Shown: positions 14,723-29,313, counted from the first letter of the stretch. The stretch is DNA of 63,384 nucleotides from Blastocatellia bacterium (GCA_036505875.1 DASXSR010000288.1:1-63384), one strand, 5' to 3'. The notes: generated by a model not told the origin, from the sequence alone. Made by a program: numbers and translations.

Positions 14723-16357
14723 TCACTTCTTAAAAATCTTTTTCGCGATCGAGCCGACGTCGGATTTCCAAATGCTGGCTTGAGCGAGATCGGTTTTGAG
14801 GCCGCCGCCGTTGGTTTCTCGCCGCGCCACGCGGTTGTCGGGATCGAGTTGAAGCGCCTCGTGAAAATAATGCTCAGCCCTCTTGAGCAATCCAGCTTGC
14901 TTGTATAACAGCCCAAGCTTAGCTCGAATCTGCGCGTTGTAAGGCTCGAGCTCGGCCGCCTTTGACAAGTGCCCCTCTGCTTCACGGCGAGTGCGAGGGT
15001 TTCGGATCAGGGCTATGCCCAGATGAAAGTGATAGGCCGCGCGCGTTGAATCCAACTTGATCGCTTCTCGAAGCAGGTGAACTGCTGCGTGATATTCCTT
15101 TCTCTCAAATCGCGCGCGCCCTTGATTGTAGTAAAGCTCGGCCATCTGCGCGGGCGGGAGATGAGGCTCAGTCTTGCGCGCGAGAGGGATTGCTTCGACT
15201 GCCGGCGCTGCAGCGGCGGCCGTCGTCGCCTCGACGACTTCTCCTTGTGTTTCTGCGTTGAGGTCGCCGCTCGGCATTCGCAGATCATCATATGACTTGG
15301 ACTCGCTCCCCGACCCGGTCGGCACTCTCGATTGATCCTTTGCTCTAATTTTTTCGTCGTACGCCGCGCGTGCCGCAGGGTGGTTTAGAGTGTCGTATGC
15401 CTGAGTCATCAACGCAAACAGCGCCTCAAGCATGTTACGCAAATCACCCACGTCACGACGGCCGTATCGGTCCGGATGATATTTCTTGGCGAGATGATAG
15501 TAGGCTGCCTTTACCTCTGCCATTGTGGACTGACGCGTCACTTCCAACACGTCGTAATAATCGCCAGTCGTGCTGAAATGCAGCTTGCGAGCAACGTCCT
15601 CGCGCAAGTGCTCTAACGACTCTTCATCCTGGCCGTCAGCTTCATCGTGCAGGTCTCCGTTGCGACCGGCGAGCTTCAGGAACCCGGCAGCGATCAACGC
15701 GCAAACCGCGCGATGCGCGTCGGCTTCTCCAAGCCCGCTCAACGGTCCCACCTCGCTGACCGGGGTGGGCGATTCGATCCGCGACAAGATATAGCTCTCT
15801 GTTGGAATCAGCTTGCCCGAGTCGGCGCCGAGACCGTTGGTCGTCGCTCGAATCACAACTCCGTCGCGGGGCGCAAGCGCTTCAGCCGCCCGCTCGACCT
15901 CCGCCGCACGACGCGCTCCTTCCAATAGCACCTCGGCCGCGGTCATCTTCAGCATCACATCGTGAGCAGTTCGGATCCGCGGGTCAAACGCGTAATCGCC
16001 CTCAGTCCATTCGAACAGTGACAGTATAATGCCCATCGCCTGAGAGCGAACCAACTCCTGCATCTGCTCGTCTTCCAGGAGACCCATCTCGACCAGCACA
16101 GGGCCGAGCCGGTTGGTCTTCCCCCCGCGCTGCTTGGCCTGCTCGATCACCTCGAAAGAGAGCAGTCCTTCCTTTACGAGTTTGTGATCGAGCTGCTCGG
16201 TTGTAATGTTGCTGATTGCGAAGGTAGGCGCGCCGTCCTCGAAGAAAATCGCCTTGATTACTTTGCCGCGCGACAACCGCAGCAGGCCGCTTGAGTTCTG
16301 TTGAGCTAACTCTCGAATGAGATTCGGGAGAAGTTTTTCGCCGAGCTGTCCCTGCAC
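14723..16357 (-). CDS. DUF4388 (PATAN-like) + J-domain + TPR protein
   Basis: The N-terminus reads L.NLIRELAQQNSSGLLRL..G...KAIFFEDG, which is DUF4388-like. The central region DYYDVLEV......EVKAAYY.LAKKYHPDR is a J domain. The C-terminus has TPR-like helices (YYNQGRA...Y..A...L.EA..LD). Confidence 0.75.
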   Translation of the reverse strand: MQGQLGEKLLPNLIRELAQQNSSGLLRLSRGKVIKAIFFEDGAPTFAISNITTEQLDHKLVKEGLLSFEVIEQAKQRGGKTNRLGPVLVEMGLLEDEQMQELVRSQAMGIILSLFEWTEGDYAFDPRIRTAHDVMLKMTAAEVLLEGARRAAEVERAAEALAPRDGVVIRATTNGLGADSGKLIPTESYILSRIESPTPVSEVGPLSGLGEADAHRAVCALIAAGFLKLAGRNGDLHDEADGQDEESLEHLREDVARKLHFSTTGDYYDVLEVTRQSTMAEVKAAYYHLAKKYHPDRYGRRDVGDLRNMLEALFALMTQAYDTLNHPAARAAYDEKIRAKDQSRVPTGSGSESKSYDDLRMPSGDLNAETQGEVVEATTAAAAAPAVEAIPLARKTEPHLPPAQMAELYYNQGRARFERKEYHAAVHLLREAIKLDSTRAAYHFHLGIALIRNPRTRREAEGHLSKAAELEPYNAQIRAKLGLLYKQAGLLKRAEHYFHEALQLDPDNRVARRETNGGGLKTDLAQASIWKSDVGSIAKKIFKK

Positions 16358-19015: not shown

Positions 19016-21214
19016 CTATGCCTTCGCGACGCGGCGGGCCAGGTTTGCCACCGCCGACGCGAGCGTGGCAGGTTCGATTGGCTTGGCGAGGTGACGCTCG
19101 AATCCCGCTTCGAGTACTCGCCTTCGGTCCTCGGTCGTAGCATATGCAGTGAGCGCGATGGCGGGGATCTTACCTCCGTGCTGCGGCGCCAATGCTCGGA
19201 CTCGTCTGATTAAGTCAAATCCATCCTCGATGGGCATGCCGATGTCGCTCACCAGCACATCGGGCATTGAGCCATTAATCGGGCCGGCGAGCGCCGCCAG
19301 CGCTTCTGACACCGAGGCTGCCGCGACAACCGATGCGCCACGCTGCTCGAGCATCGCGACAAGCAGCTCCCGGGCGTCGCTTTCGTCGTCGACGATCATG
19401 ACTCTCAACCCGGCGAGCTGTTTCGAATCATCCTTCAGGCGCTCGGGCACGCGGAGCGCCTTTAATGAACCGGTCGACACGGCAACGAGCGGAAATGACA
19501 CGGTGAAAGTAGCGCCCTTTCCGCGTCCCGCGCTTTCCGCTCGCACCTCGCCTCCGTGCATCTCGACAAGATGCCGCACGATCGCGAGTCCAAGGCCAAG
19601 CCCGCCGTGCATTCGAGCAAAGGTGCTGTCCGCTTGCCTGAAGCGGTCGAAGACGTAAGGCAAGAACTCCTCGGCGATGCCTTCACCGTTATCAGTCACC
19701 ATTATGCTGGCGGTTGATGGGTCCCTCTCGAGACTTACGGCGACCTCGCCCCCCGTGGGGGTAAACTTAATCGCATTAGAAAGCAGGTTCCAAGCCACTT
19801 GCTGCAAGCGATTTGGATCGCCGGACACGCGCGCCGAGCGATCGACTGATACGCGCAGCCTGATGTTCTTTGCATCGGCAGCGGGGCGTATCGCATCCAG
19901 AGCGGCTTCGATCACCGGCGCAAGCTCGATTGGTCTCGCCTCGAGCCTGAGCTTCCCCGATATTATTCGCGACACGTCCAACAGATCCTCGATGATCTGA
20001 GCCAGCGATTTCGTATTCCGTTCAATCGTATCCAGAGCCCGCGCGGAGCTTTGACTGTCCAGAGTATTTGTGCGCATCAGCTGGGCCCAGCCGAGTATCG
20101 AGTTCAAGGGTGTGCGCAATTCGTGCGAGACTGTGGCTAAGAACTCATCTTTGAGACGGTTGGCTGCCTCAGCTTCAGCCCGCGCCTGTTTCTCCCTGAG
20201 CAGCAAATCAGAACTGAGCCTGTGCGCTTGTTCAGCTTCGAGTCGGGCAGCTTTCTCGCTGAGCAGCAGCTTCTCCTTCTCCTCCTGGGCTTGCTTTCGC
20301 TCGGTCACTTCTACAAGCAAGTCGGAAGCGTGACGCCGCGCGTCGGCGTACAACCTTGCGTTCTCGTAAGCGGCCGCCAGTTGCCCGGTCAAAGTCATCG
20401 CCAGACGTTCGTCCGCTTCACTGAACTCGCCGCCCTCGAGCTTGTCGATAAGACACAACCAGCCGGCTGTCCTTTCCGGCAAAGCAATCGGAGCAGCGAG
20501 AGCCGATCTCCCGTCAACCGCTTCAGCAGCCGAAATACGAATCGGCTGATCTTCCGAGCGAGTAGCATCAAAGATTGGTTCGTAGCTCCCGCGGAACTTC
20601 CTGCCAGACGCAGCCTCGAGGCCGTCGATTCGTACGCGTGTGCTTCGAGCACCGAGAATGTCGCAGGCCGAGTCACAGAAGAGCTTCAGAAGAGCTTGCG
20701 GGTCGCGCTCAGCGGTCATCCGCTGTCCAAGCTCGACCAGCTTGCCCAGTCGCTGGAAATTTGCGTTCTCCAACGCAATGTTCTTTTCGTGCAGCAGCGC
20801 CGCCTGCTGTTTCACCTGCTCCGTCTTCTTGAAAAGCTCGACGAACACCGCCACCTTCGATTTCAAGGCGTCCGGGTCGAAAGGCTTGACTATGTAGTCG
20901 ACGGCCCCGAGCGAATAACCTCTCCAAAGGTCTTGTTTGTCGGCGCTGTCATATGCGGTCAGAAAAATAATAGGCACATCGCGAGTTTTCTTTCGCCCGC
21001 GAATCAACTCGGCCGTCTCGAGCCCGCTAATGCCCGGCATTCGGACGTCTAGCAGAACGACGGCCACGTCGTTGTGCAACAAGTAAAGCAAAGCCTCTTC
21101 GCCGGACGCAGCTCGAACCAGGTTGCGATCTTCGCCCTTAAGAATGGTCTCCAAGGCGAGCAGATTGCCCTTGTTGTCGTCGACCAGCAGAATATTTACA
21201 TTCGTACAATCCAT
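19016..21214 (-). CDS. Hybrid sensor histidine kinase: REC-GAF-coiled coil-HisKA-HATPase-REC
   Basis: The N-terminal REC reads ILLVDD...LDV.MP..SG and the H-box reads [16 protein letters not shown] boxes (LLSNAIKFT, DNGEGI, GGLGLGLAIV) and a C-terminal REC (VMIVDDE...SDIGMP) follow. The ATG at 21214 lies 5 nt after the cheR stop; an alternative TTG lies at 21226. Confidence 0.9.
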   Translation of the reverse strand: MDCTNVNILLVDDNKGNLLALETILKGEDRNLVRAASGEEALLYLLHNDVAVVLLDVRMPGISGLETAELIRGRKKTRDVPIIFLTAYDSADKQDLWRGYSLGAVDYIVKPFDPDALKSKVAVFVELFKKTEQVKQQAALLHEKNIALENANFQRLGKLVELGQRMTAERDPQALLKLFCDSACDILGARSTRVRIDGLEAASGRKFRGSYEPIFDATRSEDQPIRISAAEAVDGRSALAAPIALPERTAGWLCLIDKLEGGEFSEADERLAMTLTGQLAAAYENARLYADARRHASDLLVEVTERKQAQEEKEKLLLSEKAARLEAEQAHRLSSDLLLREKQARAEAEAANRLKDEFLATVSHELRTPLNSILGWAQLMRTNTLDSQSSARALDTIERNTKSLAQIIEDLLDVSRIISGKLRLEARPIELAPVIEAALDAIRPAADAKNIRLRVSVDRSARVSGDPNRLQQVAWNLLSNAIKFTPTGGEVAVSLERDPSTASIMVTDNGEGIAEEFLPYVFDRFRQADSTFARMHGGLGLGLAIVRHLVEMHGGEVRAESAGRGKGATFTVSFPLVAVSTGSLKALRVPERLKDDSKQLAGLRVMIVDDESDARELLVAMLEQRGASVVAAASVSEALAALAGPINGSMPDVLVSDIGMPIEDGFDLIRRVRALAPQHGGKIPAIALTAYATTEDRRRVLEAGFERHLAKPIEPATLASAVANLARRVAKA

Positions 21215-21219
21215 AACAT

Positions 21220-22083
21220 TTACCAATTTGATGCGGCCGCGCCTGGCATTCCTCGCTTTTGATAAAGACAGCTTTCCGTGTCAAGCGGGGCATAGCAATC
21301 TTCATGCGGCATCGACTCGATTGATTCAGCGGGACCCAGCGCGAGCACCCCAAAGCGGCTGAGGCTTTCGTAAATCAGTTTGTCGACCCGCTCCTTCAGT
21401 CTCTGATTGAAACTGCCGAGAATGCCTCGGCAAACGACAACTTGAAACTCGTTGAACGAGCCGTCAGTCGCAAGATTGTGTTCGGAAAAGACGATGTTCT
21501 TCTTGAGCGCCGGATCGATCAGCGCGCGTTTGCCTTTCTTACTGAAGTACTGCGATAACGACCACTTTCCGCCCGAGCTCCGGTAATTAGCGGCACACTT
21601 ATCGGGAAGCGAGAGCGAAAAGCTTCCGACACGCGCCTGACCTATCGCGCGGGTGCTCATATCAGTGGCGTAGATGCGTGACCGCTCATACAGGCCCTCT
21701 TCCTTGAGCAGAATCGCCATCGAGTAAACGTCCTCACCCGTCGAGCAGCCTGCGTGCCAGATGCGGACGAAAGGATAAGTCCTCAACTGCGGAACGACCT
21801 TCGTTCTGAAGGTATTGTAAAACGCGGGATCCGAGAACATCGAAAGATCGCGCAGAGAGAAGGCGCCCAGCAACCGCTCCAACAAAGCAGGCTCGCGAAG
21901 CACCTTCTCTTGAAAACGCGATATGGTCGGGATACGGCCCGCCAGCATGCGCTCGCGGATTCGGAGTCTCACCGCCCCGCGATCGTAATCCCGGAGATCG
22001 TAGCCGTAATAACGAAATACGGCTTCGAGCAACAAGTCGATTTCCAGTTCTTCCAGATTGTCGTTCGTCACGTTGTCACTCAT
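21220..22083 (-). CDS. cheR: CheR-type protein-glutamate O-methyltransferase
   Basis: The product has an N-terminal helical CheR domain ([20 protein letters not shown]), an SAM-binding motif ([18 protein letters not shown]) and IYATD. The start at 22083 (MSDNV) makes an ATGA overlap with the upstream kinase stop. Confidence 0.85.
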
Positions 22084-25000
22084 GCCCGCGCTGCTTTGCT
22101 GCCGTAGAGCCAGACCCGCAACATCGACAGCAGTTGGTCGATGTCCAGCGGTTTGGAAATGTAATCTGACGCTCCCGCCTCGATGCACTTGTCGCGGTCC
22201 GCTTTCATCGCCTTGGCCGTCAATGCGATGATCGGCAGCTCGGCGAGGCTCTCTATCTTGCGGATCGCCTGCATTGTCTCGTAGCCGTCCAACTCCGGCA
22301 TCATGATGTCCATCAACACTACGTCGATGCCTGGAATTTGCTGCAACAACTTTATGCCTTCGCGCCCGTCCTCCGCATAGAAGACTTCCATCTGATAGCT
22401 TTCCAGGGTGCTGGACAGCGCGAATATGTTGCGGACGTCGTCGTCCACAATCAGAACTTTCTTGCCCGCAAGCACCGGGTCTTGCCGCATCACCTCTTGA
22501 ATCATCCGGCGTTTGGGTTCCGGCATGTTGGCTTCCACGCGATGCAGGAAGAGTGCTGTTTCAGCAAGCAGTCTCTCGGGCGAATTGACCTCCTTTACCA
22601 CTATCGCGTCGGCGACTTGCCTCAACTGGCTCTCTTCCTTTTCGGTGAGGTCCTTGCCGGTGTACACGATTATTGGAAGGTCGTTTTGACCAAGCTCCCT
22701 CTGAATCTTATCGATCAATTCGAAGCCGCTGATGTCAGGCAATCTTAGATCCAGAACCATGCAATCGAATTGCTGGGCCTTGAGCGCTTCGAGTGCCTCG
22801 GACGCCGTAGCAACGCCGACCGTATCAACGTCTCCGCCGCCGATCAGCTCGATGATGCTCATCCGTTGGGCGTCATCGTCCTCCACAACAAGCAGCCGCT
22901 TCACGTCTCGCTGTGAAAACGCGGCGATCTGATCGAACGCTTCTGCGAGTTGCTCCCGAGAGACCGGCTTTTGCAAGTGCATAAACGCGCCGAACGCGCG
23001 AGGATGACGCGCCTGCTCGTACGCGGTAATCACGTGCACCGGAATGTGGCTCGTTTGCGGATCGTGCTTTAAACGATCGAGCACAGTCCAGCCCTCCTGA
23101 TCCGGCAGTTTGATATCCAGCGTTATCGCATCGGGCTTGTACTTGCGCGCGAGCGTCAACGCGACATCACCGCGCGCCGCAACCAGCCCTTTGAAACCCT
23201 TCTCGTGCGCGAGATCGAGGAGGATCTGCGCGAACAAGGCATCATCTTCTACGATCAGCACGATTCGCTCTCCGGGCGCGATGTTAGCGCGATCGTCGGC
23301 GATCTCTATTACTTCGCTGTATTCGGCAACCGGAAACGGACTGACGCTCGGAGCATTCCGCGCAAGTACAGCGGCAAGGCCATAGCTCGCTTGCGATGAG
23401 ACCCGCCCCGAGGTCTTGTGGGCGCGCGGCAAATAGAGGGTGAACGTGCTGCCTTCTCCGGCCGCGCTGGCGACTCGGATCTCGCCTCCGAGCAGTCGCG
23501 CAATTTCACGGCTGATCGACAGTCCCAGCCCTGTGCCGCCGTACTTGCGACTGGTCGTGCCATCGGCCTGCTGGAACGGTTCGAAGATTATCTGCTGCTT
23601 GTCTGCCGGAATCCCGATCCCGGTATCCGTCACCGAGAAGGCCACAACCAGGTCTGCCAGGTTGAGACTGTCCATTGCGAAGTGGCCGCGTTTTTCGACC
23701 GTCTTTATTTGAAGCGAGACTCGCCCGCGGTCGGTGAACTTGAAGGCGTTTGACAGCAGATTTTTGAGGACCTGTTGCAACCGCTTCTGGTCCGTCGAGA
23801 GCGTTGCAGGCATGTTGGGCTCCATTTCAATTGCGAAGTCCAATCCCTTGTCCTGCGCAATCTGATGGAAGCTGCGATTCATCTGTTCCATTACATCGAT
23901 GAATGGAACATCGGCAGTTTCGATCGCCAACATCCCCGACTCGATCTTCGACAGATCCAGAATGTCGTTGATCAGTGAAAGCAGATCGTTGCCCGAAGAG
24001 TGAATCGTCTCAGCGAACTGGACCTGTTTCGGCGTTAGCGTAGACTCCGTGTTCTCCGCGAGCTGACGTGACAGGATCAACATGCTGTTGAGCGGAGTCC
24101 TCAACTCGTGAGACATGTTGGCGAGGAATTCAGACTTGTATTTCGAAGTGAGCGCGAGCTGTTCGGCTTTTTCTTCCATCGCCCAGCGCGCCTCCTCGAC
24201 CTCGCGGTTCTTGGCTTCGACTTCCGACTTTTGCTGAGCGAGAAGCGTTGCTTTCTCCTTCAGCTCTTCGTTTGTGTTTTGCAGCTCTTCCTGTTGGCTG
24301 CGCAGTCGCTCCTCCGACTCGCGGAGGCTCAGGGCTTGCTGTTCGAGCCGCTCGTTGGTCTTCTTCAGCTCATCCTGTTGGCTCTGCAGTTCTGTGGCCA
24401 GCGACTGTGACTGGATCAACAGCCGCTCGGTTCGCGTGTTCGCCTCAATCGTGTTCAGCACGATTCCGATGCTTTCGGTCAGCGTATCCAGGAAGGTTAC
24501 GTGAACCTCACTGAAACGATTGAAGGAAGCGAGTTCGATGACCGCCTTTACTTCCTCCTCGAACAACACCGGCAAGACGATGATGTTGAGCGGCGGGGCC
24601 TCGCCCAACCCCGAGCTGACAAAGATGTAATCGTTGGGGACGTTGGTCAGCATTATGCGCTTCTTCTCCAACACGCACTGTCCGACGATCCCCTCTCCGG
24701 TCCTAAACTCGTTCGAGAGGTTCTTGCGATTCGAGTAAGCATAACCGCCGAGCAGCCTCATCAGCGTTTGCCCTTCCGCCTCGGGCTGGTTTACATAGAA
24801 CACGCCTTGTTGCGCATCGACCAGGGGCGCCAGTTCCGAAAGGATCATGTTGGCGACCGTTGTCATGTCGCGCTGGCCTTGAAGCATTCCTGTGAACCGC
24901 GCGAGGTTGGTCTTGAGCCAATCTTGCTCGGTGTTCTTCTGGGTGGTGTCTTTGAGGTTGCGGATCATCTCGTTGATGTTGTCTTTGAGGGCCGCGACCT

Positions 25001-28000
25001 CGCCTTGCGCCTCGACTGCAATCGAGCGGGTGAGGTCCCCCTGCGTGACCGCCGTCGCGACCTCGGCGATGGCTCGCACCTGGTTTGTAAGGTTCGCTGC
25101 GAGCTGGTTCACGTTGTCGGTCAAGTCTCTCCAGGTGCCGTAAGCACCCGGCACGTTCGCTTGCCCGCCGAGCTTGCCTTCGACGCCGACCTCGCGCGCC
25201 ACGGTCGTCACCTGATCTGCGAAAGTCGCCAGGGTGTCGGTCATGGCGTTGATTGTGTTGGCCAACTCGGCGATCTCGCCTTTCGATTCGATGGTCAGCT
25301 TACGGTTCAATTCACCGTTTGCGACTGCCGTCACGACGCGGGCGATGCCGCGCACCTGGCCGGTTAAGTTGCCGGCCATGAAGTTGACGTTGTCGGTCAG
25401 GTCCTTCCAGGTGCCGGCGACGCCCTTCACGTCAGCCTGTCCGCCAAGCTTGCCTTCGGTTCCAACTTCGCGCGCCACGCGCGTCACTTCAGACGCAAAC
25501 GAGTTGAGCTGGTCGACCATAACGTTGATCGTGTTCTTCAGTTCGAGAATCTCTCCCTTAACGTCGACGGTTATCTTCTTCGACAGGTCGCCGTTGGCGA
25601 CGGCCGTGGTCACCTCGGCGATGTTACGAACCTGCGCGGTCAGGTTGCTGGCCATGAAATTCACGTTGTCGGTCAGGTCCTTCCACGTGCCGGCGACGCC
25701 GCGCACGTCGGCCTGTCCGCCGAGCTTGCCTTCGGTGCCGACCTCGCGCGCCACGCGAGTGACTTCCGACGCGAACGCGTTGAGCTGGTCGACCATGACG
25801 TTGATCACTTCTTTGATCTGAAGAATCTCGCCGCGCACGTCTACGGTAATCTTCTGCGTTAGGTCGCCGTTTGCAATGGCGGTTGCAACCTTAGACATAT
25901 CGCGAAGCTGAACAGTGAGGTTGCCGGCCATCAGATTCACGTTGTCAGTCAAGTCCTTCCATGTGCCGGCGACGCCCGCGACCTGCGCCTGCCCACCGAG
26001 TTTGCCTTCGGTTCCGACTTCGCGCGCCACACGAGTGACTTCGGAAGCGAACGCGTTAAGCTGGTCCACCATTCGGTTGATCGTGTTCTTCAACTCAAGA
26101 ATTTCGCCCTTAACATCGACGGTGATCTTCTTCGACAGATCGCCGTTGGCGACCGCCGTTGTGACCTCTGCGATGTTTCTCACCTGAGCGGTAAGGTTGC
26201 CGGCCATGAAGTTCACGCTGTCGGTCAGGTCCTTCCACGTGCCGGCGACTCCGGGCACTTGAGCTTGCCCGCCGAGCTTGCCTTCAGTTCCAACCTCGCG
26301 CGCCACGCGCGTCACTTCGGATGCAAACGAGTTGAGCTGATCGACCATTCGATTGATCGTGTTCTTTAGTTCTAGAATCTCACCCTTTACGTCGACTGTG
26401 ATTTTCTTCGAAAGGTCGCCGTTAGCCACAGCGGTTGTGACCTCGGCGATGTTGCGGACCTGTCCGGTTAAGTTGCCGGCCATCGAGTTGACGCTGTCGG
26501 TCAGGTCCTTCCAGGTTCCGCCCACACCGCGCACGTCGGCCTGGCCGCCAAGCTTGCCCTCAGTTCCGACCTCTCTCGCCACGCGTGTTACTTCGGAAGC
26601 GAACGAGTTGAGCTGATCAACCATTCGATTGATTGTGTTCTTGAGCTCAAGAATCTCGCCCTTAACGTCTACGGTTATTTTCTTCGACAGGTCGCCGTTG
26701 GCGACGGCCGTTGTCACTTCGGCGATGTTTCTCACTTGGCCTGTCAGGTTCCCGGCCATCGAGTTAACGTTATCGGTCAAGTCTTTCCACGTACCTGCGA
26801 CATCAGGCACGATAGCTTGACCGCCGAGCTTGCCTTCCGTTCCTACTTCCCTCGCAACGCGTGTTACTTCCGACGCGAACGCGTTAAGCTGGTCGACCAT
26901 GACGTTGATGGTGTTCTTCAATTCAAGAATCTCGCCTTTCACGTCGACGGTGATTTTCTTAGAAAGGTCGCCTTTGGCCACCGCGGTAGTCACATCAGCG
27001 ATGTTGCGCACTTGAGCGGTAAGGTTCCCGGCCATCGAGTTGACGCTGTCGGTCAGATCCTTCCACGTGCCACCCAACCCACGCACGTCGGCTTGGCCGC
27101 CGAGCTTCCCTTCGGTCCCGACCTCACGAGCGACGCGGGTGACCTCGGAAGCGAACGAGTTAAGCTGATCGACCATAACGTTGATCGTGTTCTTCAGCTC
27201 GAGGATTTCGCCTCTCACGTCAACGGTAATCTTCTTTGAAAGGTCGCCCTTTGCGACTGCGGTTGTCACCTCGGCGATGTTTCTCACCTGAGCCGTCAGG
27301 TTGCCGGCCATGAAGTTGACGTTGTCGGTCAGGTCTTTCCAAGTGCCGGCGACTCCGGGCACTTCCGCTTGCCCGCCGAGCTTGCCTTCGGTTCCGACTT
27401 CTCTCGCAACGCGCGTAACTTCCGACGCAAACGAGTTGAGCTGATCGACCATCCGGTTGATCGTGTTCTTCAGCTCAAGAATCTCGCCCTTCACGTCGAC
27501 CGTGATCTTCTTTGAGAGGTCGCCATTAGCCACGGCGGTCGTGACCTCGGCAATGTTTCTCACCTGCCCGGTCAAGTTTCCGGCCATCGAGTTAACGTTA
27601 TCGGTGAGATCTTTCCAGGTTCCTGCGACTCCACGAACTTGAGCCTGTCCGCCGAGCTTGCCTTCGGTACCGACTTCTCTGGCGACGCGCGTCACCTCCG
27701 AAGCGAATGAGTTGAGCTGGTCGACCATTCGATTGATCGTGTTCTTCAGCTCGAGGATTTCGCCCTTCACGTCGACCGTGATTTTCTTCGACAGGTCGCC
27801 GTTGGCCACGGCGGTCGTGACTTCGGCGATGTTCCTCACTTGCCCGGTGAGGTTGCCGGCCATCGAGTTCACGTTGTCAGTCAGGTCCTTCCACGTGCCG
27901 GCAACATCCGGCACAACGGCTTGGCCGCCGAGCTTGCCTTCAGTTCCCACTTCTCTTGCGACGCGAGTGACTTCGGAAGCGAACGCGTTGAGCTGGTCAA

Positions 28001-29039
28001 CCATCGTGTTGATTGTGTTCTTGAGCTCGAGGATTTCACCTCGCACGTCGACGGTGACCTTCTTCGACAGGTCGCCGCGGGCTACCGCGGTTGTCACTTC
28101 TGCGATGTTGCGCACTTGAGCAGTCAGGTTGCCGGCCATCGAGTTGACGCTGTCGGTCAGGTCCTTCCAACTGCCCGCGACGCCTTTCACTTTCGCCTCG
28201 CCGCCCAACTTGCCTTCGGTTCCAACTTCTCTAGCAACGCGCGTGACCTCCGAGGCGAACGACCCAAGCTGTCCGACCATAGCATTGACCAGCTTGACCG
28301 ATCGCAGGAAATCACCTCTCAGCGGTCTGCCGTCTACTTCCAACGCCATGGTCTGAGAGAGATCCCCGTTTGCAACCGCGCCAATCACGCGGGCCATCTC
28401 GGTCGTCGGTCGAACCATATCGTCAATGAGAGTGTTGACCGAGTCGATCAAGCTTCGCCACGAGCCGTCAGCCGAGGGCAGCATCGCCCGCTGAGCGATC
28501 TTGCCTTCTTTGCCGACCACTCGGCTCACGCGTTCGAGTTCTCTCGTCAGCCTGTCATTACGGCCGATCACTTCATTAAGAGTGTCGGCAATCTTGCCGG
28601 GAATACCGACCCAATCGTCAGGCAGGCGCACCGAGAAGTCCCCCTTCTTAAGGGCGACCACAGTCTTCAGCAATTCTCTGTCGTTAGGCGATTTGGTGAC
28701 CGCGCCGTCAGCCGCTTGTTTAGCTTTGGGCCTGGCCATGATATCGACGATAGAATTGATTGACTTGAATGATTTCGCCCAGGAACCCTTCGCGGCCGGC
28801 AGCTTCCCGTTTCTTGTGATCTTTTGATCCTTACTTGCGGCTTTGCTTACGCGGTCAAGCTCGCTCGCAAGCTTTGAGTTGAGAGTCGCTACATCATTAA
28901 AGGCTCTCGCGATCTCGCGCTCGACGCCGGTGGACTTCTCAGAAAGCCGCGCGGAGAAGTCGCCTTTCTTTAAAGCCGTCAGCGCCTGCAGCAATTGGCT
29001 GCTGTCTATAGTATTGGTGATCGCTTCCGGATTTGGCAT
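22080..29039 (-). CDS. Giant soluble poly-HAMP hybrid sensor kinase: N-terminal HAMP-like units, about 12 x 92-aa HAMP repeats, GAF, coiled coil, HisKA-HATPase and 3 x REC
   Basis: The ORF has no N-terminal TM segment. The repeated unit is [19 protein letters not shown]...[58 protein letters not shown]. An H-box ([14 protein letters not shown]), N/G boxes and three D-containing REC domains follow. The start at 29039 (MPNPE, preceded by AAGGGGG) is preferred over 29072. Confidence 0.9.
24950..28250. repeat. Tandem 276-bp (92-codon) coding repeat, about 12 copies, inside the poly-HAMP kinase gene
   Basis: I counted 92 aa from one EVTRVAREV to the next. The first unit starts at about aa 275 of the ORF (about nt 28250). 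The twelfth, most divergent unit ends near nt 24950. Confidence 0.85.
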
Positions 29040-29209
29040 TGAACCCCCTTTTGGTATCTCACGACACACCACACCTCTTCGGCTGGCGAATGAATCGCGG
29101 GCCGTCCAGTTCGATAAGGTCTATGCGAACGGTCTTTCGGTGGCAAGAGACGAAACTACCGCTTAAGTAAGGACTGGTAGAAATTTGCGACACCGCTAAG
29201 GGTATCGAG

Positions 29210-29253: not shown

Positions 29254-29313
29254 TTCAAGCGTCCGCCAGCATAATAGTTAAGAGGCACAGCAGTTGTCAA
29301 CGGTTGTTTAATG

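Follow-up and report, generated by a model that had tools for sequence, protein, structure and literature searches.

A CheR-family methyltransferase gene between two hybrid histidine kinase genes of a Blastocatellia bacterium: a probable RsbK/RsbM-type cassette with a poly-HAMP kinase

The stretch of DNA analysed here (the window) is contig C288 of a Blastocatellia bacterium, an acidobacterium from soil, 63,384 nucleotides long (GCA_036505875.1, DASXSR010000288.1:1-63384), whose minus strand carries the gene of a chemotaxis-type methyltransferase of the CheR family between the genes of two sensor kinases, designated K1 and K2. The arrangement is real and it is conserved in other genomes. Based on sequence comparison and on analogy with characterised systems, we consider it probable that the operon is an RsbK/RsbM-type methylatable hybrid-kinase cassette, as known from Bacillus cereus, in which CheR would methylate the signalling helix (S-helix) of a soluble poly-HAMP kinase of the AskA/AskB type. 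The operon is a variation on a characterised system, RsbK/RsbM, and introduces no new principle. What is specific to the locus is limited to its lack of a CheB gene and to a series of gene losses within one bacterial class.

Results

ORF calling and translation of positions 19016-29072 gave three long open reading frames (ORFs), all on the minus strand. With the Pfam searches, these supported the gene order that an earlier note on this DNA had read from the sequence, namely a poly-HAMP kinase, CheR and a REC-GAF-histidine kinase (HK)-REC protein. K1 (22080-29039) encodes a soluble poly-HAMP-GAF-HisKA-HATPase-REC×3 hybrid histidine kinase, CheR (21220-22083) a predicted RsbM-type protein-glutamate methyltransferase of 287 aa, and K2 (19016-21214) a hybrid kinase with the Pfam domains REC, GAF, HisKA, HATPase_c and REC. 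The gene junctions given in the note also read exactly so: the K1 stop overlaps the CheR start in an ATGA at 22080-22083, and a gap of 5 nt (21215-21219) lies between the CheR stop and the K2 ATG at 21214. An alternative K2 start, a TTG at 21226, would overlap the CheR stop. In eight of eight close relatives the K1/CheR/K2 junctions were similarly tight (0-50 nt or overlapping).

The earlier note had proposed a survey of gene neighbourhoods across phyla; for this, a genome collection was scanned for homologues of this CheR, which number in the thousands, and 80 loci from 80 genomes in more than ten phyla were examined. These came from Acidobacteriota, Cyanobacteriota, Gemmatimonadota, Bacillota (Paenibacillus, Bacillus and relatives, and Clostridium), Pseudomonadota (Pseudomonas, Polaromonas and others), Spirochaetota (Leptospira), Bacteroidota, Actinomycetota, Myxococcota, Chloroflexota, Calditrichota and Thermodesulfobacteriota. 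The loci were annotated with domain queries taken from K1, CheR and K2, and adjacency was counted over the 58 loci with enough flanking sequence. A GAF-HK-REC hybrid kinase adjoined CheR in 51 of these and a receiver-less CheB of ~190-200 aa in 41, while a REC-first protein, usually REC-HK(-REC), followed CheR or CheB in 47. At some loci the K2 slot held a REC-PAS-GGDEF-EAL protein or was empty. The earlier note had suggested that similar gene neighbourhoods may exist elsewhere, and the recurrence of the K1-CheR-K2 type of order in dozens of genomes is more than chance.

Of the 51 kinases adjoining CheR, 19 had a poly-HAMP array and the remaining 32 had one HAMP domain or none; Pfam annotation of representatives of this second kind gave CHASE3 or 4HB_MCP, HAMP, GAF, HisKA, HATPase and one to three REC domains. 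Poly-HAMP kinases occurred together with this CheR clade in Acidobacteriota, Gemmatimonadota, some Cyanobacteria and one myxobacterium. An 884-aa Bacillus protein (CHASE3/HAMP/GAF/HK/REC) had exactly the RsbK layout, and in the Paenibacillus copies a gene for a REC-SpoIIE (RsbY-like) phosphatase lay directly upstream. At four Nostoc loci (L018, L021, L020 and L023) the neighbours of a cassette-type CheR were not matched by the HK, REC, GAF or CheB queries, and these may represent a different context.

In a maximum-likelihood tree, all 96 kinase-linked CheRs, including that of the window, formed one clade with an SH-aLRT (Shimodaira-Hasegawa-like approximate likelihood ratio test) value of 99, separate from nine CheRs of chemotaxis or CheR-PAS type that the same genomes encode. 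The clade takes in the CheRs of Bacillaceae and Paenibacillaceae cassettes whose kinases have the RsbK architecture; B. cereus RsbM itself was not in the tree.

The S-adenosylmethionine (SAM) domain (PF01739) of the operon's CheR scored 105 bits against a Pfam cut-off of 27, and its CheR_N domain (PF03705), at 26.4 bits, fell narrowly short of the cut-off, likewise 27; most homologues have a precomputed PF03705 match, and the AlphaFold2 model of the protein (predicted local distance difference test score, pLDDT, 85.5) has the helical N-domain. Structural matches to the model were CheR proteins at all of ranks 1-10, led by B. subtilis CheR (5FTW; template modelling scores of 0.76/0.85), which was also the best sequence match in the PDB (2.7e-22). 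The SAM motif, the acidic loop and the active-site CR motif were invariant in 17 sequences down to 54% identity. Compared with the orthologue in the congener G006, the ratio of non-synonymous to synonymous substitution rates (dN/dS) was 0.13 for CheR and likewise for K2, and K1 was under far stronger constraint (0.037). From these comparisons, the CheR gene is under purifying selection and its product looks catalytically intact.

A check proposed in the earlier note concerned the beta-subdomain and pentapeptide-binding features of this CheR. In the beta-subdomain, the loop that follows the conserved YF has 7 residues (Salmonella CheR, 10; B. subtilis CheR, 8), and we take this short loop to be of the pentapeptide-independent type. 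No terminal xWxxF tether was found on K1, K2 or either of the genome's two methyl-accepting chemotaxis proteins (MCPs), so that neither the enzyme nor these candidate substrates have the features of the pentapeptide-dependent subclass.

The earlier note had also remarked on the absence of MCP, CheA, CheW and CheB from the window, and genome-wide profile searches agreed, with none on C288 and all matches on other contigs of this 98.5%-complete genome. MCP signalling domains matched on two contigs only, C251 and C199, as did CheB, on C251 and C132; CheW and CheA were on C251, with only weak matches elsewhere, on C406. C251 carries a complete MCP-CheW-CheR-CheA-CheB-CheX cluster, whose own CheR scored 198 bits on Pfam and is ~26% identical to that of the operon. 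A chemosensory core of MCP, CheW and CheA encoded together with a CheR of the operon's type was found neither on C288 nor at any of the 80 related loci (0/80 for each of the three proteins). Because this CheR belongs to the kinase-linked clade, because its relatives are not encoded with MCP, CheW or CheA, and because the C251 cluster has its own CheR, it very probably acts on a neighbouring kinase rather than on an MCP, which would provide a methylation input to a phosphorelay.

Two further loci were noted on these contigs. On C132 (L091:6542-12230), a second, non-chemotaxis methylation module consists of co-oriented genes for a 342-aa receiver-less CheB, a 185-aa CheB, a 619-aa CheR-PAS fusion and a PAS-HisKA-HATPase-REC kinase. 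The C199 match (L092:848-3922, minus strand) encodes a protein of 1,024 aa whose N-terminal half contains the MCP signalling domain and whose C-terminal half contains the solute-binding domain SBP_bac_5, an order that is unusual for a chemoreceptor.

Pfam analysis of K1 identified 12 HAMP and 13 HAMP_2 stretches, followed by GAF_2, HisKA, HATPase_c and three REC domains. The poly-HAMP array (24918-29039, minus strand, as are all features of K1; HAMP 4e-130, HAMP_2 5e-115) begins with two or three divergent units, after which there are 12 units with 11 spacings of exactly 92 residues. Neither a transmembrane segment nor a CHASE3 domain was detected in K1 by translation and Pfam. The GAF domain (24456-24872; GAF_2, 2.9e-17) covers residues 1401-1539, numbered from a GTG at 29072. 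It is followed by the S-helix (24138-24440), a heptad coiled coil of ~100 residues with 32% Glu and Gln that reaches from GAF to HisKA and would be the methyl-accepting region; by its position it is homologous to the S-helix that is methylated in RsbK (PMC4574943). The catalytic core of HisKA (DHp, with H1655) and HATPase_c occupies 23421-24137, and the three receiver domains (Response_reg, three stretches, 3.9e-63) occupy 22119-23300.

The array of K1 matched the poly-HAMP kinase fragments PDB 9TRK and 9TRJ with an E-value of 4.7e-94. These fragments are from AskA of Myxococcus xanthus, whose array structure was solved in 2026 (PMC13446029). In the architecture described in that paper, alternating HAMP types precede GAF, DHp/CA and one or more REC domains, and K1 has this AskA/AskB-type layout, with 92-residue units of alternating type. 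The 92-residue units at 26583-28235 (minus strand) are nearly identical in sequence to those of 9TRK and 9TRJ, an extreme conservation of a repeat across phyla.

Comparison of the linkers between GAF and HisKA pointed to a candidate methyl-accepting site. An alignment of 63 cassette kinases showed this linker to be a heptad coiled coil in which Leu occurs once per heptad and short motifs such as QQEEL and NEEL recur. It is conserved in Firmicutes, Proteobacteria and Acidobacteriota alike, and is the EE-rich element that all the cassettes have in common. In K1, three candidate methyl-accepting EE pairs (24264-24314) are E1587/E1588, E1595/E1596 and E1602/E1603, at -68/-67, -60/-59 and -53/-52 relative to the phospho-accepting H1655. 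The -60/-59 pair was found in nearly all cassette kinases, and proteins of RsbK architecture from Bacillaceae and Paenibacillaceae (L045, L057, L067 and L076) have EE at -67/-66 and -60/-59; the EE-rich heptad helix therefore lies at the same distance from the phospho-His in these proteins and in K1. The methylated residues of RsbK are reportedly E439 and E446 (Chen 2012); if so, their offsets would be -66 and -59 and they would be the second Glu of each of those two pairs.

Known CheR sites in chemoreceptors are Glu residues of EE or QE pairs. Eleven of the 27 adjacent E/Q pairs of K1 fall within the 73 residues 1565-1637, and the HAMP array (residues 12-1381) contains none, even though E and Q make up 135 of its 1,369 residues. 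Because heptad-spaced EE pairs are present in the S-helix and absent from the array, the helix between GAF and HisKA appears the likelier target of methylation, and within it the EE pairs would be the sites.

The partner kinase K2 is conserved together with K1 and occupies the position that AskC has beside AskB, a likeness of position. In a phylum sample of 151 genomes, each at least 90% complete, K1-type kinases were present in 13 and cassette CheRs in 11; both were present in 9 of the 13 K1-positive genomes, with adjacent genes in seven of the nine. In five genomes that belong to the class and family of the window's own (G031, G035, G030, G017 and G024; loci L120, L119, L121, L122 and L123), the K1 orthologue directly adjoins or overlaps a REC-first K2, and neither CheR nor CheB is present. 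Because the two kinase genes are adjacent in genomes without the methylation enzymes, we regard K1 and K2 as the core of the cassette and the methylation enzymes as accessories. The S-helix was shorter in the K1 proteins of G017 and G024, where ~11 query residues were unaligned and one heptad block was missing.

The same class also contains cassettes with CheB, and so holds three states: K1-CheR-CheB-K2, K1-CheR-K2 and K1-K2. The first was found in G015, of the same family, and in Pyrinomonadaceae and Blastocatellia loci, and the second, without CheB, in all six relatives of the same genus and the one of a sister genus that have the cassette. In the tree, the CheB-less CheRs formed a clade nested among CheB-containing acidobacterial cassettes. 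A displaced cassette-type CheB was not found elsewhere in the window's own genome: its three CheBs share 33-44% identity with cassette CheBs, cassette CheBs from different phyla share 43-60% with each other, and its two receiver-less CheBs belong to the CheR-PAS module. Because a cassette-type CheB is missing both from the locus and from the rest of the genome, the genus makes do without a dedicated esterase in the cassette, as B. cereus does. In related families CheR, too, has been lost. The K2 proteins of the CheB-less clade (window and G006) have an insertion of ~23 residues, located in the coiled-coil linker that leads to HisKA (approximately residues 318-340, counted from the TTG at 21226), which the CheB-containing acidobacterial K2 proteins do not have.

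The limits of the operon are consistent with a unit of three genes. The most likely start codon of K1 is the ATG at 29039, which has a ribosome-binding site, GGGGG, ahead of it. Between 18700 and 29500 only one site resembles a promoter, a candidate sigma-70-type promoter at 29271-29300 (minus strand; TTGACA, 18 nt, TATTAT), which matches the consensus at 11 of 12 positions, a consensus match only, and lies just past the recA stop, ~230 nt ahead of the K1 start. The operon is flanked upstream by recA and on the 3' side of K2 by a convergent M20 peptidase gene, with no PP2C gene nearby; since the promoter-like site follows recA and the M20 peptidase gene downstream of K2 is convergent, we regard K1, CheR and K2 as a three-gene operon. 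A DUF4388 protein fused to DnaJ and TPR repeats is encoded close by (14723-16357, minus strand), and a second DUF4388 protein is encoded directly downstream of the C251 che cluster (L090:16895-18064).

Discussion

The earlier note knew of no functional description of such a gene neighbourhood. This was wrong, because RsbK/RsbM and bmsA clusters had already been described. RsbM, a CheR-like enzyme of B. cereus, methylates the S-helix between GAF and HK of the hybrid kinase RsbK, whose phospho-His is H505, as was demonstrated in vitro with 14C-SAM; methylation represses signalling, and methylation and the C-terminal receiver are both needed to keep the kinase silent (PMC4574943). The same study counted 127 RsbK-like kinases in 10 phyla. 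PMC12848376 credits de Been and colleagues with the observation that RsbK and CheR are associated in genomes, and a Pseudomonas bmsA-cheR-cheB-hybrid kinase cluster was described by Lee 2016, as cited in PMC8175716.

The operon of the window shares with the B. cereus RsbK-RsbM(-RsbY) sigma-B module (Chen 2015, PMC4574943; Chen 2012 and de Been 2010 and 2011, as cited) a hybrid kinase with the core GAF, S-helix, HisKA, HATPase_c and REC, a co-oriented CheR-type methyltransferase gene directly after it in the operon, and the lack of a CheB there. The S-helix of K1 is Glu-rich and has EE at H-60/-59 in common with the Bacillaceae and Paenibacillaceae proteins. However, the sensor of K1 is a soluble array of 14-15 HAMP units, in contrast to the transmembrane CHASE3 and single HAMP of RsbK, K1 has three receivers and RsbK one, and a second hybrid kinase is coupled downstream. 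The operon also has neither the RsbY-type (REC-PP2C) phosphatase nor the sigma-B partner-switching genes of B. cereus. The CHASE3 sensor and the RsbY/sigma-B output define the B. cereus sigma-B version and not the wider cassette. The Pseudomonas BmsA cluster, whose first gene encodes a CHASE3/GAF hybrid kinase, has the same order of kinase, CheR and REC-HK, and its CheR and S-helix are homologous; it differs in the CHASE3 membrane sensor, in a receiver-less CheB and in a single-domain REC that follows the cluster, where the window has a poly-HAMP kinase and no CheB.

K1 itself resembles the ambruticin-sensing kinases AskA and AskB of M. xanthus, which have the same array of 92-residue HAMP units, nearly identical in sequence, with GAF, DHp/CA and three REC domains. 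There, the hybrid kinase gene askC lies directly downstream of askB, K2 likewise being a second hybrid kinase encoded downstream of K1, and Rec3 of AskA binds the AskC receiver (PMC7643160). In the operon of the window a CheR gene stands between the two kinases, whereas the published Ask work mentions a methyltransferase zero times. With canonical chemotaxis (MCP, CheR and CheB-REC) the operon has the enzyme family in common, and the chemistry would probably be the same, namely methyl esterification of Glu in EE pairs that are spaced by heptads along a coiled coil. The likely substrate, however, is the linker of a histidine kinase instead of an MCP, and CheA/CheW, a pentapeptide tether and a phosphorylation-controlled CheB are all missing from the operon.

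The "adaptation-like input to a phosphorelay" suggested in the earlier note holds in part: a methylation input through a neighbouring kinase is supported by the CheR clade and by the loci without MCPs, but the target that the note proposed, the Glu residues of the HAMP repeat, is not. Each 92-residue unit does carry several invariant Glu, and poly-HAMP kinases and this CheR clade co-occur in several phyla, as would be expected if CheR methylated these residues and the array were a multi-site methylation register. We consider this very unlikely, given the lack of E/Q pairs in the array and the 32 of 51 cassettes that keep CheR with at most one HAMP. In addition, the same Glu are equally invariant in the AskA array (9TRK and 9TRJ, PMC13446029) and in K1 orthologues of genomes without CheR, and for this reason the HAMP fold suffices to explain them. 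It is unlikely, though less so, that CheR methylates K2, or both kinases. K2 is coupled directly behind CheR, a REC-first partner is conserved downstream, and acidobacterial and cyanobacterial K2 linkers have one short EE-containing motif in common; this motif is restricted to those lineages, however, and a search of the K2 linker for a conserved methylation-like motif found no heptad EE series and poor conservation across phyla. The K2 slot is moreover sometimes filled by the REC-PAS-GGDEF-EAL protein or left empty, and it is the kinase encoded upstream, of RsbK type, that is methylated in B. cereus (PMC4574943).

The co-occurrence of CheR+CheB, CheR-only and CheR-less states within one class could mean that CheR is itself on the way to loss after CheB, either decaying in function or kept as a non-catalytic binding partner. 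The long stem of the CheB-less clade would fit this, as would the faster evolution of CheR than of K1 between congeners (74% against 91% identity to the G006 orthologue). We nevertheless regard it as quite improbable because CheR has the same dN/dS as K2, its catalytic and SAM motifs are invariant, and tblastn found its gene in eight of eight CheB-less relatives with no internal stops reported; furthermore, a CheB-less cassette is functional in B. cereus (PMC4574943). The least credible alternative, which we rejected, is that CheR is a surplus chemotaxis enzyme that methylates the two MCPs of the genome in trans. These do have canonical EE-x-x-S/A sites, and CheR enzymes can be promiscuous, but the MCPs lack a tethering pentapeptide and the beta-subdomain loop of the operon's CheR is short. 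The C251 cluster has its own, higher-scoring CheR from a different clade, and the position between kinases is conserved across phyla at loci without MCPs.

Several observations weigh against an RsbK/RsbM-type cassette with a methylated S-helix. The EE pairs of the S-helix do not fit the strict MCP consensus ([EQ][EQ]xx[ASTG][ASTG]), which requires small residues after the pair. As this consensus matched nothing relevant in K1 or K2, we interpret the pairs as a relaxed form of it. The QQEEL/NEEL motif is kept in the K1 proteins of G031, G035 and G030, which are without CheR, and the sequence of the helix must therefore be constrained by more than methylation. The stem of the CheB-less CheR clade, at 0.9 substitutions per site, could mean an altered specificity. 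Finally, Bacillaceae and Paenibacillaceae homologues of RsbK architecture stood in for B. cereus RsbK and RsbM in our comparisons.

If the operon is a methylatable-kinase cassette of the RsbK/RsbM type, K1 would sense a cytoplasmic cue by its HAMP array and/or its GAF domain, and the signal would pass down the parallel coiled-coil S-helix to the DHp/CA core. The co-translated CheR would use SAM to form methyl esters on exposed Glu of the heptad EE pairs, most likely around E1596 and E1603, which would neutralise charge and stiffen the coiled coil. By analogy with B. cereus RsbK, methylation may bias K1 to a receiver-inhibited, low-output state. K1 would signal together with K2, probably by receiver-receiver contacts or phosphotransfer, as reported for AskA and AskC. 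With the dedicated receiver-less CheB lost in the genus, methylation would either run, in effect, in one direction only, as it does in B. cereus, or be undone by an esterase that is not linked to the cassette.

B. cereus is, to our knowledge, the only organism in which experiments have demonstrated covalent methylation of a histidine kinase instead of a chemoreceptor. The spread of the cassette over more than ten phyla speaks to the reach of this kinase-methylation mechanism, and the locus described here, while it opens no new principle, is such a cassette grafted onto an AskA-type poly-HAMP kinase. Relatives of the AskA/AskB-family kinases include the fungal group III kinases, the targets of ambruticin and phenylpyrrole fungicides. 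We tentatively suggest that poly-HAMP kinases of this family may be Glu-methylated on the S-helix by a dedicated CheR, which would give them a chemotaxis-like memory, and that this genus has discarded the esterase, so that methyl groups would be added with no enzyme to remove them; the locus would then be an intermediate in a loss series from CheR+CheB to CheR only to neither. The CheR+CheB, CheR-only and CheR-less versions of near-identical kinases within one class form a comparison set for what methylation adds to such a kinase.

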